A stretch of 32,000 nt of DNA from Dubosiella newyorkensis (lineage in GTDB: Bacteria > Bacillota_I > Bacilli_A > Erysipelotrichales > Erysipelotrichaceae). Below are positions 3,900 to 14,832 of this stretch, one piece after another (the first letter of the stretch is position 1; the number at the start of each line of letters is the position of its first letter). The translations under genes and the position numbers were made by a program. The stretch covers positions 152,396 through 184,395 of the forward strand of contig NZ_MPKA01000044.1 of NCBI RefSeq assembly GCF_001945605.1, read 5' to 3'. The notes beneath the pieces are model-generated. The model saw nothing but the letters and a program-made list of their open reading frames with translations. It was not told where the DNA came from and ran no database searches.

Positions 3900-4742
3900 A
3901 TGAGTTTATTTCAAGCTATCTTGATTGGTTTGGTTTCTTGTACAGCTGCTTCCACGATTGCTTGCTTAGGTACGACAGTCGGTAACTATACGTTGAACCG
4001 TCCGCTCGTTGCATCCATGATCGTTGGTATCATTCTTGGCGATGTTTCTGGATGTATCTTAATTGGTATCCCTATGCAGGTTATGTGGATCGCGCTCGTT
4101 ACACCTGGTGGAACTGTTGCATCAGACTTACGTGCCGTTTCTTATATCGGTATTCCTCTTGCCTATGTTGGCGTTAAGGCCGCTGGTATCGATCCTGCGT
4201 CCGACGAAGCGTTCCAATTGGCAAGTTCTATTTCGGCCATGACTGGTACGATCGGTATCACGTTGTTCTATGGTACAGCGATGATGAACCTGATCTGGCA
4301 GCATATTGGATGGGCAAAACTTGATAAAGGCGATTTCGAGATCGTTGGAAAAGTAGACGCTTTGATGCCTTTGATCTCTCACTTCTGCTTGTCTTTCTTG
4401 CCTGTTACTTTGCTTTGCTATTTTGGATCCGGAGCCGTTGAAGAAGTATTCAAGACGTTGGATGTATCTGTTTGGTATGTCAAGGCCCTTCTTTGCGTAG
4501 GTTCTGTTCTTCCAGCTGTTGGTATCGCGATCTTGTTGAAATCTGTGGTGAACAAAACATCTGACTTAGTATTCTTCCTTCTTGGTTTCGTTCTTGCAGC
4601 TGCAATGGGATTGACTCTTCTTGCTGCTACAGTTGTTGGTGGTGTATTCGCTTTGATCAACTACCAGATGACAATGATCAAGATCGAGGCAAACAAAGGC
4701 GGCGGAGCTGCTGTTGTCGTTGAAGAAGAGGAGGATATTTAA
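3900..4742 (+). CDS. PTS mannose/fructose/sorbose-family EIIC component
   Basis: Polytopic hydrophobic 280-aa protein sitting between IIB and IID, with RBS AAGGAGAAG. The order IIA-IIB-IIC-IID is typical of this family. Confidence 0.85.
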   Translation: MSLFQAILIGLVSCTAASTIACLGTTVGNYTLNRPLVASMIVGIILGDVSGCILIGIPMQVMWIALVTPGGTVASDLRAVSYIGIPLAYVGVKAAGIDPASDEAFQLASSISAMTGTIGITLFYGTAMMNLIWQHIGWAKLDKGDFEIVGKVDALMPLISHFCLSFLPVTLLCYFGSGAVEEVFKTLDVSVWYVKALLCVGSVLPAVGIAILLKSVVNKTSDLVFFLLGFVLAAAMGLTLLAATVVGGVFALINYQMTMIKIEANKGGGAAVVVEEEEDI

Positions 4743-4744
4743 TT

Positions 4745-5560
4745 ATGAAAAAGATTTCTAAAAAGACATTAAATTCATCCTTCTGGCGTTGGTGGTATGG
4801 AAACTTGACTTGTTTCTCTCACGAACACATGCAGACTTTTGGTTACATGTGGGCGATGATCCCTATTTTGAAGGAATTGTACCCTACTCATGAAGAACAA
4901 GCTGAAAAGCTTCAAACATACTATGCATTCTTCAATACAGAACCTCAAATTGGATGTATCGTAGTCGGTGTTACAGCTGGTTTGGAAGAAGCTCGTGCAA
5001 ATGGCGCTGAAGGAATCGATGATGAAATGATCAATGGTATCCGTGCTGGTTTGATGGGTCCATTGGCTGGTATCGGTGACTCTTTGATCGTTGGTACGTA
5101 TATTCCGATCTTGTTAGGTATCGCGGTAGGTCTTGCTGAAGGCGGATCTGTGATCGGTCCTATCTTCTACATCGTAGTTTGGAATATCACATCGACTTGG
5201 TTCCAAAAATTCGTATTCGATAAAGGATATTCTCTTGGTGGTTCTGCCGTAGAACTTCTCGTTGGTGAAAAGGCGACAGCGTTCCGTGAATCCGTTATCG
5301 TTATGGGTCAAGTTATCGTTGGTGCCATGGCCGCTTCTTGGGTCAACATCACTACTCCACTTCAAATCGCTACGAACTCTGAGGGTGAACCTGTAATGTT
5401 GCAGGCGAACTTAGATGGAGCGTTCCCTAAGATCTTGACAATGTTGTTTGTCGTATTCTGCTGGTGGCTCCAAGCGAAAAAAGGTTTAACACCAATCAAA
5501 GTCCTTCTTTTGATGGCAGTGATCGCTTTCGTTGGATCTGTTTTGGGTATTCTTGGATAG
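4745..5560 (+). CDS. PTS mannose/fructose/sorbose-family EIID component
   Basis: 'LNSSFWRWWYGNLTCFSHEHMQTFGYMWAMIPILKELY' is the typical EIID-Man N-terminal region. The gap to IIC is 2 nt. Confidence 0.9.
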   Translation: MKKISKKTLNSSFWRWWYGNLTCFSHEHMQTFGYMWAMIPILKELYPTHEEQAEKLQTYYAFFNTEPQIGCIVVGVTAGLEEARANGAEGIDDEMINGIRAGLMGPLAGIGDSLIVGTYIPILLGIAVGLAEGGSVIGPIFYIVVWNITSTWFQKFVFDKGYSLGGSAVELLVGEKATAFRESVIVMGQVIVGAMAASWVNITTPLQIATNSEGEPVMLQANLDGAFPKILTMLFVVFCWWLQAKKGLTPIKVLLLMAVIAFVGSVLGILG

Positions 5561-5611: not shown

Positions 5612-5636
5612 ATACTTTTTAGAAAGGGGGTCAAGT

Positions 5637-5963
5637 ATGAAACTATCAAAAAGGGAACGAGAGGCGCTTGCTTTATCCATTCAACAAGAAAATGAAATGC
5701 TGAAGCGCGTAGGAAAGATCATTCGAAATTCATTTGTGGCTTTGGCGGTTTTTCTCTTGTTGTTTTACTGGGGATATTCTGAAATCCATGATGTATTTTT
5801 TCCTAATCTTTCCGCAAGCGGCCATCAAGTGATCAAATGGATCGGGATCATAGGCTCGATCGCATCGCTAGCGATGTTGATCTTCTCATTGACAGCTCGC
5901 CATTATGGAAAGAAGAACGTCTTGAAAAAGATCGATAAGTATCAAGGAAGAACATCTTCGTAG
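5637..5963 (+). CDS. Hypothetical small membrane protein (two predicted TM helices)
   Basis: 108-aa ORF with a strong RBS (AGAAAGGGGG, 8 nt spacing). Two hydrophobic stretches: FVALAVFLLLFYWGY and WIGIIGSIASLAMLIFSL. No family recognised. Confidence 0.6.
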   Translation: MKLSKREREALALSIQQENEMLKRVGKIIRNSFVALAVFLLLFYWGYSEIHDVFFPNLSASGHQVIKWIGIIGSIASLAMLIFSLTARHYGKKNVLKKIDKYQGRTSS

Positions 5964-6044
5964 ATTTACTTTGGTCACTGTTCTTCACATATTTTTACAT
6001 ATTGTTGACATATTGAGTAGGTAGGATTTGAGTATTCTATAACC

Positions 6045-6124
6045 GAGCAAAGAAATGCTCACTTCATAATCAAATTCCCTTTCTTAAAACTTTCTTGGAA
6101 AGAACCAGCGCGAGCTGGTTTTTT
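6045..6124 (+). ncRNA. Candidate sRNA, unit A (5' hairpin, CU-rich single-stranded core, intrinsic terminator)
   Basis: A -10-like TATTCT (6033-6038) ends 6 nt before the hairpin GAGCA-aagaaa-TGCTC (6045-6060). The core has 2x CTTTCTT (6079-6085, 6090-6096). The terminator is AACCAGC-GCGA-GCTGGTT (6103-6120) plus a T-run to 6124. No conserved ORF. Confidence 0.45.
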
Positions 6125-6190
6125 CTTTTATACCGTTATTTCACATAAGTCTCCCATTCGATTGCGAAGATGAATTGTTATGATATAAAA

Positions 6191-6263
6191 GAACAGAAAG
6201 TAATCTGTTCACTTCATAATCAAATTTCCTTTCTTAAAAAAGTCGGTGTTTGCCGATTTTTTT
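6191..6263 (+). ncRNA. Candidate sRNA, unit B (shorter paralog)
   Basis: An extended -10 TGtTATGAT (6176-6184) ends 6 nt before the hairpin GAACAG-aaagtaat-CTGTTC (6191-6210). The same core follows, with one CTTTCTT. The terminator is TCGGT-gttt-GCCGA (6243-6256) plus T7. Confidence 0.4.
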
Positions 6264-6344
6264 CTTTTTTATGCTTTAGTGCTTTCACATCAAATCACAA
6301 ATTATATACATATTAAAAAAGTAGGTTTTAGGTATTCTATAACC

Positions 6345-6426
6345 GAGCAAAGAAATGCTCACTTCATAATCAAATTCCCTTTCTTAAAACTTTCTTGGAA
6401 AAAAACCAGCTCTAGCTGGTTTTTTT
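6345..6426 (+). ncRNA. Candidate sRNA, unit C (near-identical to unit A)
   Basis: Same -10-like element, hairpin and core as unit A. The terminator AACCAGC-TCTA-GCTGGTT (6404-6421) has a different loop on the same stem, followed by a T-run to 6426. Confidence 0.45.
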
Positions 6427-6471
6427 CATATTTACCTAAAAATCATGTAAGGTTTCTTTATGATAGGAATC

Positions 6472-6480
6472 TGATATAAT
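6472..6480 (+). promoter_or_regulatory. Extended -10 promoter element upstream of the glycolipid gene cluster
   Basis: TGaTATAAT at 6472-6480. No good -35. It lies only 12 nt before ATG 6493, so the true start codon may be ATG 6505. Confidence 0.35.
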
Positions 6481-6492
6481 GAGCCCGAAAGG

Positions 6493-7563
6493 ATGAAGAA
6501 TGCTATGAATCAAAGAAAATTAGAGATTACTATGTTCTCGAGTGCAGACAAGGTTGCTGGACAAGGCGTAGGGTCGGCCTATTTGGAACAAGTCAATCTA
6601 TTGAAATCGCAAGCAAGCGAGCTATTCGATATTAAGATAAATGACTGGTTCGCGAAAGCGGATATCAAGCATTTTCATACGATCGATCCTGCGTTTCTCG
6701 TTCCTATGCTCGATAAAAAAGCAGTAAAGGTGGCGTATTGTCACTTTTTACCGGATACAGTTATCGATGGAAGTTTGAAGATCCCTTCTGCTTTTCAACC
6801 TTTAACTTCTCACTATATCATTCATTTTTATAATATGGCGGATCATTTAGTCGTTGTAAATCCAAGCTTTATACCCGACTTAGTCCGTTATGGGATCCCT
6901 CGCGAAAAGATAACGTATATTCCAAATTATGTTTCAAAAGAAAAATTCCACTCTTTAGGACAAGCCAAGAAGGAAGAAACACGCCAAAAATATAATATTC
7001 CAGAAGACGCGTTCATCGCTTTAGGCGTTGGACAAGTTCAGACCCGGAAGGGAGTGCTTGATTTTTGCGAAGTCGCTCAGCTTTGTCCTGAAATCACATT
7101 CGTATGGGCGGGCGGTTTTTCATTTGGCGCCATGACAGACGGCTATGAAGAACTAAAAGCGCTTATGGAAAATCCACCCGCAAATGTGCGGTTTATTGGA
7201 ATCATCGATCGAAGCGAAATGGTTTCCATTTATAATATGGCTGATGTTCTTTTTGTGCCAAGCTATAATGAACTATTTCCTATGACGATCTTGGAAGCAA
7301 GCAATCTTGGAATTCCGCTGTTGCTTCGAGACCTGGATCTTTACCGAGATATCTTATTTGGCCATTATCTTATGGCCCAAAACAACGAGCAGTTTGCCAA
7401 AGATCTCATGGTCTTAAAAAAAGATCCGGCACTCTATCAAAAATATCAAAAAGAAAGCGAAGCGATCAGCGCCTATTACTCGAAAGAACACGTGGTCGAA
7501 ATGTGGAAATCGTTTTATTTGGATGTTTATCATCAAAAACAAAGAGAGCTAGGAAACGAATAG
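6493..7563 (+). CDS. GT4-family glycosyltransferase, CpoA/alDGS-like (probable diglycosyl-diacylglycerol synthase)
   Basis: 'ITMFSSADKVAGQGVGSAYLEQVNLLK' is the N-terminal signature I associate with Acholeplasma alDGS and pneumococcal CpoA-type glycolipid GTs. A C-terminal GT-B nucleotide-sugar domain is present. Start uncertain (6493 or 6505). Confidence 0.75.
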   Translation: MKNAMNQRKLEITMFSSADKVAGQGVGSAYLEQVNLLKSQASELFDIKINDWFAKADIKHFHTIDPAFLVPMLDKKAVKVAYCHFLPDTVIDGSLKIPSAFQPLTSHYIIHFYNMADHLVVVNPSFIPDLVRYGIPREKITYIPNYVSKEKFHSLGQAKKEETRQKYNIPEDAFIALGVGQVQTRKGVLDFCEVAQLCPEITFVWAGGFSFGAMTDGYEELKALMENPPANVRFIGIIDRSEMVSIYNMADVLFVPSYNELFPMTILEASNLGIPLLLRDLDLYRDILFGHYLMAQNNEQFAKDLMVLKKDPALYQKYQKESEAISAYYSKEHVVEMWKSFYLDVYHQKQRELGNE

Positions 7564-8623: not shown

Positions 8624-10597
8624 ATGAATGTAGGTATTTTTACAGATTCCTATTTACCCGATATCAATGGTGTGGTCACCAGCATCGTGACGCTCAAAAA
8701 GGCGCTCGAGCAACTCGGTCACACCGTCTTTATTGTGTCCAATCATATCGGTACTCGAATTCTTTATGATCCAGAAGAAAGGATCTTACGCCTGCCTGGT
8801 GTCGAACTTAAACATTTATATGGGTATACGATGTCGAGCCCCCTAAATTTCGCAAGAGAATATCTTGAAGAAATGGATCTAGACATTATTCATACCCAAC
8901 ACGAATTTGGCGTATCGCTCTATGGAAGAATGATGGGCAAAGAACTCAATATTCCTGTTGTCTACACCTATCATACAATGTATGAAGATTATACCCACTA
9001 CATCAATCCATTCGACTTGAATCATATCGAAAAAGCCGGAAAATGGGTCGTCAAAAGCGCGTCCAGAAAGCTAGGCAATACAGTCCAGGCCGTGATCGCT
9101 CCTTCCGAAAAAACCAAAGAAACTTTATATGAATACGGCGTCCGTGCTCCAATCTATGTTGTTCCTACCGGACTGGACCTGGATCGTTTCAAACTTGAAA
9201 ACCTCGAACTAGAAAAGATCCAAAACATCCGTGAACAGCTCGGATTTCACGAAGACACAAAAACACTCGTCTTTGTAGGACGGATCGCCAAAGAAAAATC
9301 AATCGAAATACCGATCGAAGCGCTCTCCCTCCTGAACGATCAAGACATCCATTTGATCATTGTTGGAGCAGGAACCGATGAAGAGTATTATCAAGAGCTT
9401 ACTTGGAAAAAAGAGCTGGATCACCGCGTTCACTTTATCGGTAAGATCCCATCCGAACAAATTCCGTATTATTACGCCGCATTTGATGGATTCGTTTCTG
9501 CTTCTTTGACAGAAACACAAGGCTTGACTTATATTGAAGCGCTCGCGAGCGGATTGAATATATTTGGTCGCCGCGACGAAGTGCTCTACGATTTGATCGA
9601 TGAAGGAAATACAGGCTATTATTTTGACGATGCGCAAGAACTCAGTCAAAAAATCGAACACTTTTTTTCTTTGTCGCGCGAAGAACGACAAAAAAAAGCC
9701 GACCTATGTAGAGAAAAGACCATTCCTTACGCGAAAGAGCTTTTTGGACAAAAAGTCATCGCCGTCTATGAACAAGTGATCGATGATTATCGTTTGACGT
9801 TTACCGTAGAAAAGATCCGGATCCAAGATGACTTTGTGAAACTCTATTTAGAGCGCGAAAGCGATGAAGACACGATCAAGATCTTGATCCCGTTGGATGA
9901 TTTTTTTGAATTGAAGATCGGACTGCATACGAAAGTCGATGCCTATCTTGTGTCTGGTTATTTAACGATGCAAGAATATTATCAAGCGTATTCGATACTC
10001 AAACGACGAGTCTTCACGAAAGAACAGTCCGTATTTGAATTGAAACAATATGCCCATCATCATTTTGAATTGGATGAAGCCAAACTCAATCAGCTTATCC
10101 AAGAATTCCAAGAAAAAAACTGGCTCAACGATCAAAAATATGCCTATGAAAAAGCAGAATATTGGCATGATATGGGCAACTCAAGACGAAATATCGCAGC
10201 CAAGCTTTCAAAAGCCGGGATCGCACGCGATTTGATTGACGAAGTTCTTCAAAATCTAAATACAAAAAAAGAGCTCGCGAACGCCCAAGCGCTCGCTCAG
10301 CGCTTGATCCAGACGGTAAAATTGCAGTCATCGAACATGAAACGGAAAAATATCATCCATAAATTGATCCAAAAAGGATACTCAAGCGATATCGCCCAAG
10401 AAGTTGGAGAAGCTCTAGAACTCGATGACAACGATGAAGAAGCGCTTCAGCTAACCTTTAAAAAGGCTGTGCGCCTCTATTCTTCCTTGCCAGAAGAAAA
10501 ACGGCGCCAAAAAATTCGTCAATATTGCTTGCGGAACGGTTTTTCAGGACAAGAAATCGATGAAAAATTAGAAATGAGTGAAGAATTTAATGATTAA
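8624..10597 (+). CDS. Fusion protein: alMGS-like GT4 glycosyltransferase (aa 1 to about 389) joined directly to a full-length Bacillus-type RecX domain (aa about 390-657)
   Basis: The N-terminus 'MNVGIFTDSYLPDINGVVTSIVTLKKALEQLGHTVFIVS' and the E-x7-E motif 'ETQGLTYIEA' indicate a monoglucosyl-DAG-synthase-type GT4. The C-terminal part 'VEKIRIQDDFVKLYLE...WLNDQKYAYEKA...NIAAKLSKAGIARDLIDEVL...LIQKGYSSDIAQEV...KIRQYCLRNGFSGQEIDEKL' parallels B. subtilis RecX along its whole length. It is a single uninterrupted frame. Confidence 0.8.
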   Translation: MNVGIFTDSYLPDINGVVTSIVTLKKALEQLGHTVFIVSNHIGTRILYDPEERILRLPGVELKHLYGYTMSSPLNFAREYLEEMDLDIIHTQHEFGVSLYGRMMGKELNIPVVYTYHTMYEDYTHYINPFDLNHIEKAGKWVVKSASRKLGNTVQAVIAPSEKTKETLYEYGVRAPIYVVPTGLDLDRFKLENLELEKIQNIREQLGFHEDTKTLVFVGRIAKEKSIEIPIEALSLLNDQDIHLIIVGAGTDEEYYQELTWKKELDHRVHFIGKIPSEQIPYYYAAFDGFVSASLTETQGLTYIEALASGLNIFGRRDEVLYDLIDEGNTGYYFDDAQELSQKIEHFFSLSREERQKKADLCREKTIPYAKELFGQKVIAVYEQVIDDYRLTFTVEKIRIQDDFVKLYLERESDEDTIKILIPLDDFFELKIGLHTKVDAYLVSGYLTMQEYYQAYSILKRRVFTKEQSVFELKQYAHHHFELDEAKLNQLIQEFQEKNWLNDQKYAYEKAEYWHDMGNSRRNIAAKLSKAGIARDLIDEVLQNLNTKKELANAQALAQRLIQTVKLQSSNMKRKNIIHKLIQKGYSSDIAQEVGEALELDDNDEEALQLTFKKAVRLYSSLPEEKRRQKIRQYCLRNGFSGQEIDEKLEMSEEFND

Positions 10598-14801: not shown

Positions 14802-14818
14802 GGGGGGGGGGGAGGGGG
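14802..14818. repeat. Homopolymeric tract G11-A-G5 (C5-T-C11 on the minus strand)
   Basis: Read directly: c ggggggggggg a ggggg t. It is intergenic, 25 nt upstream of the GntR ATG and downstream of the ade terminator. Confidence 0.95.
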
Positions 14819-14832
14819 TGAACAAAAAATTT

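Follow-up and report, generated by a model that had tools for sequence, protein, structure and literature searches.

In a 32,000-nucleotide stretch of DNA from Dubosiella newyorkensis (contig NZ_MPKA01000044.1, positions 152,396 to 184,395), which we call the window, the 529-nt gap between the open reading frame (ORF) of a 108-aa membrane protein (5637-5963) and that of a GT4 glycosyltransferase (GT; 6493-7563) holds three head-to-tail units, A, B and C, which, judged from their sequence, are copies of a small RNA (sRNA) gene family conserved across gut Erysipelotrichaceae. We favor, with moderate confidence, the reading that the units are three independent paralogous genes of an undescribed Erysipelotrichaceae sRNA family, which would repress translation in trans through a core antisense to a translation-initiation region (TIR), called here an “anti-TIR” core, with units A and C being activated by a response regulator. 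This reading is built on the anatomy of the units, their conservation between genera, the covariation of their stem, a core that stays unpaired, and a promoter box that is almost exclusive to these sRNA genes.

On the plus strand of each unit, a -10 element of its own is followed by a 5' hairpin, a core of 30–38 nt that is left unpaired, and an intrinsic terminator, which together predict an RNA of about 80 nt. The 30-nt core CACTTCATAATCAAATTYCCTTTCTTAAAA has exactly three plus-strand occurrences in the window, at 6060, 6210, and 6360, where shuffled sequences are expected to give none, and the core-to-core spacing is exactly 150/150, in agreement with the 150-bp phase described in an earlier note made from the letters of this DNA. 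The counts given there for units A and C were also reproduced, namely 70/70 identical positions in 6032-6101 vs. 6332-6401 and only 24/40 matching positions in the upstream flanks (5981-6020 vs. 6281-6320), while the entire units match at 115/150 positions. The 5' hairpin stands at the same place in every unit and at the coordinates previously assigned to it, reading GAGCA-aagaaa-TGCTC in A (6045-6060) and C (6345-6360) and, with a changed sequence, GAACAG-aaagtaat-CTGTTC in B (6191-6210); in all three units it ends one base before ACTTCAT, which begins directly beyond it. The earlier note was likewise right about the 3' ends, given that every unit closes with a GC-rich terminator hairpin and a T-run, the stem AACCAGC/GCTGGTT being common to A and C with different loops (GCGA vs. 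TCTA) and the stem of B being GTCGG/CCGAT, and also about the -10-like hexamers, which end 6 nt before the first G of the hairpin in all three units (TATTCT at 6033-6038 in A and at 6333-6338 in C, and the extended -10 TGtTATGAT at 6176-6184 in B).

In minimum-free-energy and centroid folds alike, all three predicted RNAs form the 5' hairpin, an unpaired core, and the terminator (z-scores from -4.4 to -5.0 relative to dinucleotide shuffles), and they were also scored with R1, a covariance model of the hairpin plus core for which the family cut is 36 bits or more. Predicted sRNA A (6045-6126, about 82 nt) consists of the hairpin at 6045-6060, the anti-TIR core at 6060-6098, and the terminator at 6097-6126, and folds at -25.2 kcal/mol (z -4.36) with the core unpaired, scoring 79.3 bits. 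Predicted sRNA C (6345-6428; hairpin 6345-6360, core 6360-6398, terminator 6398-6427) folds at -24.3 kcal/mol (z -4.75) and has the same score of 79.3 bits. Predicted sRNA B (6191-6270) is a divergent paralogue, with the hairpin at 6191-6210, a core at 6210-6239 that is the U variant and lacks the second CUUUCUU, and a terminator at 6236-6263 followed by a U-tail; it folds at -20.5 kcal/mol (z -4.99), its terminator is matched at 6236-6263 by a terminator scan, and it reaches 56.9 bits. The tract of A/C identity starts 13 nt before the predicted RNA start (6032-6044 vs. 6332-6344) and takes in the variable hairpin loop, and because it includes these non-RNA bases and this loop, the 70/70 identity within the species is probably the product of recent gene conversion or duplication and not of selection alone. 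Four independent metagenome contigs from this species (L071, L072, L075, and L134) carry the identical three-unit array, with few differences between them. These come from assemblies with pet names (Connie, Belle, Kit, and Cinder; L134 is Connie_p2__coassemble_392), and the window's species is therefore probably a companion-animal gut bacterium.

Beyond this species, an exact-match scan with the 21-mer TTCATAATCAAATTYCCTTTC in one genome per species gave 70 loci, and the full succession of hairpin, core, and terminator is present in 56 of them. The unit-bearing genera are Dubosiella, Ileibacterium, Faecalibaculum, Holdemanella, Faecalicoccus, Floccifex, Absicoccus, Allobaculum, Faecalitalea, Catenisphaera, and unnamed Erysipelotrichaceae. 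Where the earlier note had allowed for the motif being absent from related genomes, the opposite is seen, since the family spans at least 12 named Erysipelotrichaceae genera, often with several copies per genome. Counted as lower bounds, there are at least 8 copies in Dubosiella muris, at least 8 in strain M10-2, at least 7 in OPF54, at least 4 in a Faecalibaculum metagenome-assembled genome (MAG), 3 in tandem in Ileibacterium valens, and 1–2 elsewhere, and a metagenome scan added at least 120 further loci. With R1, 71 family copies score 36–84.5 bits, and the 17 matches below the cut (35.7 bits or less) are 14 chance matches antisense to TIRs plus three weak ones at 16–17 bits; no further divergent copies were found by R1 in the collected loci.

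The 38-nt core is identical in most copies of these different genera, in which the adjacent GT gene keeps only 72–75% DNA and 61–75% protein identity. The 5' stem, in contrast to this invariance, changes its sequence and keeps its pairing, as GAGCA/UGCUC, GAGCC/GGCUC, GAGCU/AGCUC, GAGUC/GACUC, or GAACAG/CUGUUC, and in the Floccifex-type copies it is swapped entirely to GGGUU/AACCC. Its innermost pair (15-28) is UA in 20 copies, CG in 19, AU in 4, and UG in 5. The stem is paired in 80.6% of the alignment cells, where slid partners reach at most 39%, and two-sided changes occupy 30 cells vs. 9.1±5.3 in shuffles, with none of 500 shuffles reaching 30. The median unpaired probability of the core is 0.93 (62 copies), a 3' hairpin followed by at least four T is present in 60/61 scored copies, and the predicted RNA has a median length of 82 nt (range 66–98). 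The proposal of a multicopy sRNA family thus gains a unit present in at least 12 genera with a covarying stem and an invariant core, and the structure conservation with sequence change first noticed between the window's units generalizes family-wide.

The core itself is laid out as CAU, 9 nt, and then CCCUUUCU, so that the complement of the core, AAGAAAGGGAAUUUGAUUAUGAAG / CCAAGAAAGUUUUAAGAAAGGGAAUUUGAUUAUGAAGUG, is a Shine-Dalgarno sequence (SD; AGAAAGGG), a 9-nt spacer, and AUG, that is, AGAAAGGG-N9-AUG, with the CAU standing in the context U-CAU-AA. A CU-rich, anti-SD-like core whose complement reads as an SD had already been recognized, together with the use of AGAAAGGG (5621-5628) as ribosome-binding site by the gene just upstream (ORF start 5637), and both statements hold; what we add to them is that the core is antisense not only to the SD but also to the start codon. 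The 16S rRNA encoded in the window has the 3' end GGAUCACCUCCUUUCUAAGG (tail CCUCCUUUCUA), so that CCUUUCU is common to the core (UUCCCUUUCUUA) and the anti-SD tail of the ribosome. A further line of evidence comes from the 14/70 exact 21-mer loci that belong to unrelated bacteria (Clostridia, Bacteroidales, and others), which match the T variant in antisense to real gene starts (for example in L019, L066, and L067); the core is therefore the reverse complement of a natural TIR.

The promoters form the second part of the argument. Upstream of unit A there is a box of direct repeats at 5975-6012, TCACT(5975)-TCACA(5985)-TTACA(5995)-TGACA(6006), with a period of 10–11 bp, in which the last repeat (6006) overlaps the -35 position and the one furthest upstream (5975) is an extra, fourth repeat; a tandem-repeat search (TRF) gives a period-11 repeat at 5987-6015. 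Unit C has the box TCACA(6285)-TCACA(6295)-(T)ACATA(6307/6308) at 6285-6312, and the upstream alignment leaves unit B with a single canonical TCACA half-site at 6141-6145, 50 nt 5' of the hairpin G. The pattern TCACA-N5-TNACA-N8-ACATA has only two matches in the window (5985 and 6285; none expected), both 60 nt 5' of the hairpin G, and the proximal TCACA lies 50 nt from this G in A, B, and C, a geometry that is the same across genera. In most of the other genera the TCACA box precedes the syntenic copy, with the proximal TCACA about 31 nt 5' of the -10. Of the 25 TCACA-N5-TCACA sites in 558 kb of genome loci, 24 have the core within the next 115 nt, and 19 of the 20 sites in 900 kb of independent metagenome loci precede a copy (jointly 43/45 in 1.46 Mb), with repeat spacings other than N5 giving 0–5 occurrences. 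In addition, TAnnnT is found 4–9 nt 5' of the hairpin G in 50/63 unique copies.

The sites of OmpR/PhoB-type regulators are recognized by direct repeats of 10–11 bp period extending to the -35, and such an arrangement (repeat period, -35 reach, and fixed -10 distance) is what we find at 5975/5985/5995/6006 and at 6285/6295/6307. Most likely, then, units A and C are activated by a response regulator of the OmpR/PhoB type, the binding protein being one that we infer from its putative sites. A simple promoter scan did not find a full -35/-10 promoter at the array, which fits activator-dependent promoters and is not positive evidence for them. A NarL-type two-component system encoded beside the Holdemanella PTS (phosphotransferase system) operon was considered as the regulator and rejected because it is absent from the window. 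For the name of the regulator, the TTTTCACA octamer repeats of the CssR-controlled htrA/htrB promoters of B. subtilis are a tentative lead.

Other promoters were met within the family and beside it. The dispersed copies of Dubosiella muris, OPF54, and M10-2 are preceded by AAAAAG-GAGCRTT-N3-ATTGGCA-N17-TTTAAT, a conserved promoter with a proper -35 and, further upstream, the conserved element GAGCRTT (L016:7560-7620, L024, L007, L060, L038, L002, L041, L070, and L052), and the Allobaculum copies have a third promoter type; given these different promoter types, the sRNA paralogues appear to be wired to different inputs. Separately, a second promoter with an ACACA-N5-TCACA box at the distance that the sRNA boxes keep, about 32 nt from a -10 (TAGAAT), and with a conserved AGCGTTTTCAAG 5' of it, is divergently oriented to the man-type PTS operon and is not followed by an ORF (L027:3961-4183 (-), L034:1556-1779 (-), L039:4019-4240, L042:7424-7645, L044:4117-4338, L057:3996-4219 (-), and L064:3394-3615). 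It may drive another small RNA of the same regulon, or else it may reflect response-regulator control of the PTS promoter.

Putting these elements together, we propose that A, B, and C would each be transcribed independently into an RNA of about 80 nt, with a 5' hairpin, a core of 30–38 nt (CACUUCAUAAUCAAAUUCCCUUUCUUAAAACUUUCUUG), and a Rho-independent terminator. Within the core, CCCUUUCU would pair with the AGAAAGGG SD, copying part of the cell's own 16S 3' tail CCUCCUUUCUA, and the CAU 9 nt away would pair with AUG. Because the core complements a ribosome-binding site and the start codon exactly, it most likely blocks the translation of its target mRNAs in the manner of the csRNAs of Streptococcus, so that, for a subset of mRNAs, trans pairing that covers both the SD and the start codon would prevent 30S binding and repress translation, with several copies providing an additive dose. 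At A and C, an OmpR/PhoB-type regulator would bind the TCACA-N5-TCACA-N8-ACATA repeats of 10–11 bp period, which would replace the -35, while unit B would have retained a single half-site and acquired an extended -10. Transcription itself, the identity of the regulator, base pairing as the mode of action, and the targets are what we infer here from the conserved features.

Several points weigh against this proposal. A sliding RNAduplex scan of the window found the native core to pair no better than shuffled cores, and among 1,682 candidate starts the TIRs with long complementary runs are not enriched (63 observed vs. 68±56 shuffled). The invariance of 38 nt exceeds the typical need of a seed, and protein binding or several overlapping constraints may account for it. 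Units A and C have a weak -10 (TATTCT), with no -35 found by the promoter scan, and a two-component system is not encoded in the window. The transcripts, their ends, and their strand are predictions from the DNA letters, and, given the conserved location ahead of glycolipid genes, a role in cis is conceivable.

Since the overall count is not enriched over shuffles, the TIR of the small transmembrane (TM) gene just upstream (5614-5641, UUUUUAGAAAGGGGGUCAAGUAUGAA) is only a candidate target; it has 11 contiguous pairs with the core and ranks 14 of 482 in an energy ranking of 482 SD-bearing TIRs. The orthologous TIR of D. muris has 16 contiguous pairs and ranks 3/482, that of M10-2 ranks 37/482, and those of Holdemanella, Faecalitalea, and others rank 112–442 of 482. 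Good matches were also seen at the TIRs of a YhaM-like gene (Holdemanella) and of MATE-type transporters (three genomes), which we regard as leads. At the IIC/IID junction of the PTS operon, GGAUAUUUAAUUAUGAA (4733-4749, a minus-strand match) complements the core UUCAUAAUCAAAUUCCC with 2 mismatches, the IID TIR being at 4745; matches of this quality are expected 0.81 times by chance in the window, and a PTS target is thus a weak lead.

What, then, could the invariant core be doing if not pairing with a chosen set of mRNAs? It is possible, although we doubt it, that the RNA works as a protein-binding or sponge RNA, in which a conserved RNA-binding protein recognizes the invariant 38-nt strand and is titrated or delivered by it. 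Seed pairing does not usually require a core that stays 100% identical where the DNA of the neighboring genes is about 73% identical, a multicopy tandem layout suits a titrating RNA, and no target stands out statistically. However, a protein site would not be expected to consist of an SD complement, a 9-nt spacer, and the complement of a start codon, natural TIRs of unrelated bacteria match the core perfectly in antisense, and the core has no repeated GGA-type or other known protein-binding motif, to which the csRNA precedent for base pairing must be added (PMC3091779). With a similarly low probability, we entertain the more speculative thought that the RNA mimics the reading head of the ribosome and is deployed as a global TIR competitor, plus a possible shared ancestry with csRNAs. 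One strand would then join the copy of the 16S tail (CCUUUCU) to an initiator-tRNA-like U-CAU-AA at the spacing of the 30S initiation complex, and up to 8 or more copies, called up by a two-component signal, would compete for the whole TIR class. If the csRNA ancestry were true, the module of a stress two-component system with a multicopy anti-TIR sRNA would predate the Bacilli/Erysipelotrichia split, and the TCACA box by the man-type PTS operons of Holdemanella and Faecalitalea would echo the control of manLMN by CiaR, which represses it in S. pneumoniae (PMC8317062).

The surroundings of the array raise the question of an action in cis. In the window, the order is a man-type PTS (IIA, IIB, IIC, and IID), the small-TM protein, the array, the GT4 gene, an LPG_synthase_TM protein, and a GT4-RecX fusion. 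The syntenic upstream neighbor (5637-5963, plus strand) encodes the 108-aa protein, which has two TM segments and no Pfam match; such a small-TM gene lies immediately 5' of the sRNA in most genera, and the order of small-TM gene, sRNA(s), and GT gene on one strand recurs in most of them. With this conserved order and three consecutive terminators in view, the array might be a leader or attenuator of the glycolipid GT operon, in which transcripts from the box promoters would mostly end at the terminators and read-through would set the expression of the GT genes, or a set of terminators insulating the GT genes from the PTS operon, which we consider unlikely. The GT gene has an extended -10 of its own, TGATATAAT at 6472-6480 on the plus strand, which marks the right boundary outside the array and lies 3' of the last terminator in nearly all genera; it is conserved as [TC]GATATAAT (GGTATAAT or GGCTATAAT in L006 and L022) 5' of the start in the full-length sequences of all compared genera. 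Moreover, of the 68 copies for which a downstream gene is called (unfiltered table), 28 face that gene in convergent orientation, flanking genes and orientations vary, and many copies lie in unrelated contexts. Given the GT gene's own promoter and these convergent downstream genes, an obligatory cis-leader role for the array is unlikely. There is also no alternative antiterminator pairing, the core being unpaired in the ensemble, and an insulator would not need an invariant single strand of 38 nt. In keeping with what is generic for sRNA genes, the copies carry their own promoter (-10 in 50/63) and their own terminator (60/61), independently of the flanking genes.

The constant neighborhood of the small two-TM gene invites yet another explanation, to which we give a quite low probability, namely that the RNA is a local antitoxin-like regulator of this gene in the manner of type I toxin-antitoxin systems, with the dispersed copies being secondary. 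Its adjacency to the sRNA is conserved, and its TIR is among the best matches of the core in D. muris, the window, and M10-2. Nevertheless, the same TIR falls to the low ranks given above in Holdemanella, Faecalitalea, and others, the protein of 105–127 aa is large for a type I toxin, and sRNA copies also occur far from any small-TM gene.

Very improbable, in our judgment, is a function of the opposite strand, where a strong SD, an optimal spacer, and AUG AAG UGA could be a two-codon mini-ORF or a ribosome-loading site. Every copy reads AAGAAAGGGAAUUUGAUUAUGAAGUGA there, and many terminators with an upstream A-run could act bidirectionally. The conserved -10 and the repeat box lie, however, at fixed distances on the plus-strand side, with no conserved promoter on the other side; terminators without an upstream A-run keep the plus-side T-run (Holdemanella, Absicoccus, and Faecalitalea), and the UGA merely complements the base of the hairpin stem. 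Peptide coding was rejected for both strands: the sole plus-strand ORF through the core (MLTS*) requires this species' own loop sequence and lacks conservation, and “MK*” on the minus strand is just the stem base read in complement. Finally, that the array is a recent, neutral, and functionless duplication of a terminator or 3' untranslated region has next to no probability, since, even with the non-RNA bases 6032-6044 included in the A/C identical tract of 70 nt, it is refuted by the conservation of the unit, with its stems covarying and its core unchanged, in at least 12 genera.

Some observations on the neighborhood may be of use in their own right. The orthologues of the GT4 protein (MxxxKLRITMYSSADKV) suggest a start at ATG 6505 over 6493. 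Further downstream, at 8624-10597, a 657-aa protein fuses a GT4 (Glyco_transf_4 + Glycos_transf_1) to C-terminal RecX three-helix domains, and this fusion is kept in related loci (MRVGLFTDAYYPDINGVV...). At 14802-14819, just 5' of the start of a minus-strand GntR/FCD regulator gene, there is a G11-A-G5 tract, C-rich on the minus strand, which is possibly a slipped-strand, phase-variable site or an assembly artefact. In the Faecalibaculum MAG, a T-box leader (RF00230, 110.9 bits, L009:3611-3814 (-)) adjoins a tandem sRNA pair and is unrelated to the sRNAs. A mobile-element origin of the array was rejected, given that blastn against known plasmids and phages gave no match.

As far as a full-text literature search showed, no regulatory sRNA has been characterized in the Erysipelotrichaceae, to which Holdemanella, Faecalibaculum, Dubosiella, Ileibacterium, and Allobaculum belong as abundant gut commensals. 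Our preferred reading of the array as trans-acting anti-TIR sRNA genes would offer this family of bacteria a first, easily testable post-transcriptional regulon, and the TCACA repeats would provide a compact cis-element for finding the cognate two-component system and the remaining regulon. The position between a mannose-type PTS operon and membrane-glycolipid genes hints at envelope or carbohydrate physiology. The copies also give a clean seed alignment for a new Rfam family, as well as an independent case for asking whether multicopy anti-TIR sRNAs are a recurrent solution in Hfq-independent Firmicutes.

How does this family compare with the RNAs already described? The earlier note did not recognize it as a known RNA family, which agrees with our searches: at gathering score, Rfam 15 gave only 16S rRNA and one T-box in the window plus 18 related loci, permissive searches gave sub-threshold matches only, and full-text literature searches for Erysipelotrichaceae sRNAs and for the core sequence found no description of the RNA. 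The csRNA model RF02379 is the top Rfam model for every tested copy (n=4), at 19–24 bits vs. a gathering score of 57 (unit C 23.4, unit A 19.2, Dubosiella L016 24.4, and Holdemanella L010 20.0). In csRNAs, two stem-loops flank an unpaired anti-SD plus anti-AUG region, the genes are multicopy and sometimes tandem, and the promoters carry, where a good -35 would be, a direct repeat for a response regulator (PMC3091779, PMC8186281), which for CiaR is NTTAAG-N5-TTTAAG about 10 bp upstream of the -10 (PMC3091779). Occlusion of the SD and start codon was proposed for them (PMC3091779), and some targets have been verified (PMC4507080, PMC8186281).

The Erysipelotrichaceae RNAs are thus like the csRNAs (ccnA-E of Streptococcus) in their length class (about 80–150 nt), in the two stem-loops of which the second is the terminator, in the unpaired anti-SD plus CAU, in having several similar copies per genome, some of them tandem, and in a direct repeat that replaces a good -35. 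They differ in the core, where the csRNA model consensus is UUCAUAAUAAUCUCC vs. UUCAUAAUCAAAUUCCC in the Erysipelotrichaceae, and which is far more invariant here than in csRNAs. They also differ in the host class, Erysipelotrichia and not Streptococcus, and in the TCACA-N5-TCACA-N8-ACATA box, which has a period of 10 bp instead of 11 bp and lies further upstream. The CiaR box TTAAG-N5-TTTAAG has no occurrence in the window with 1 mismatch allowed and no exact one in 196 loci. Because the csRNA threshold is missed and the CiaR box is absent, the family seems to work like the csRNAs without being a member of them, and the likeness may be homology or convergence on the universal TIR.

Two other groups of sRNAs deserve comparison. 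LhrC1-5 of Listeria monocytogenes are multicopy, with four copies head to tail, and are induced by the envelope-stress two-component system LisRK; these RNAs of about 110 nt pair with SD regions through three CU-rich UCCC motifs in loops or single strands and have no start-codon complement. Each Erysipelotrichaceae RNA has, in contrast, one UCCC (UUCCCUUU), with a different sequence, length, and host, and the Rfam searches of the tested copies gave no LhrC match at E<=10. RsaE/RoxS and other C-rich sRNAs of Bacillales are Hfq-independent, controlled by a response regulator (ResD/SrrA), and occlude the SD by C-rich single strands; RsaE has CCCC motifs in loops, is single-copy, and lacks an anti-AUG element. 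The Erysipelotrichaceae core, unlike RsaE/RoxS (RF01820, 12.3 bits vs. a gathering score of 79), has no CCCC. In summary, although absent from Rfam, the three units of the window and their relatives appear to form a new sRNA family of a known functional kind, that is, a response-regulator-driven, multicopy, anti-TIR family.

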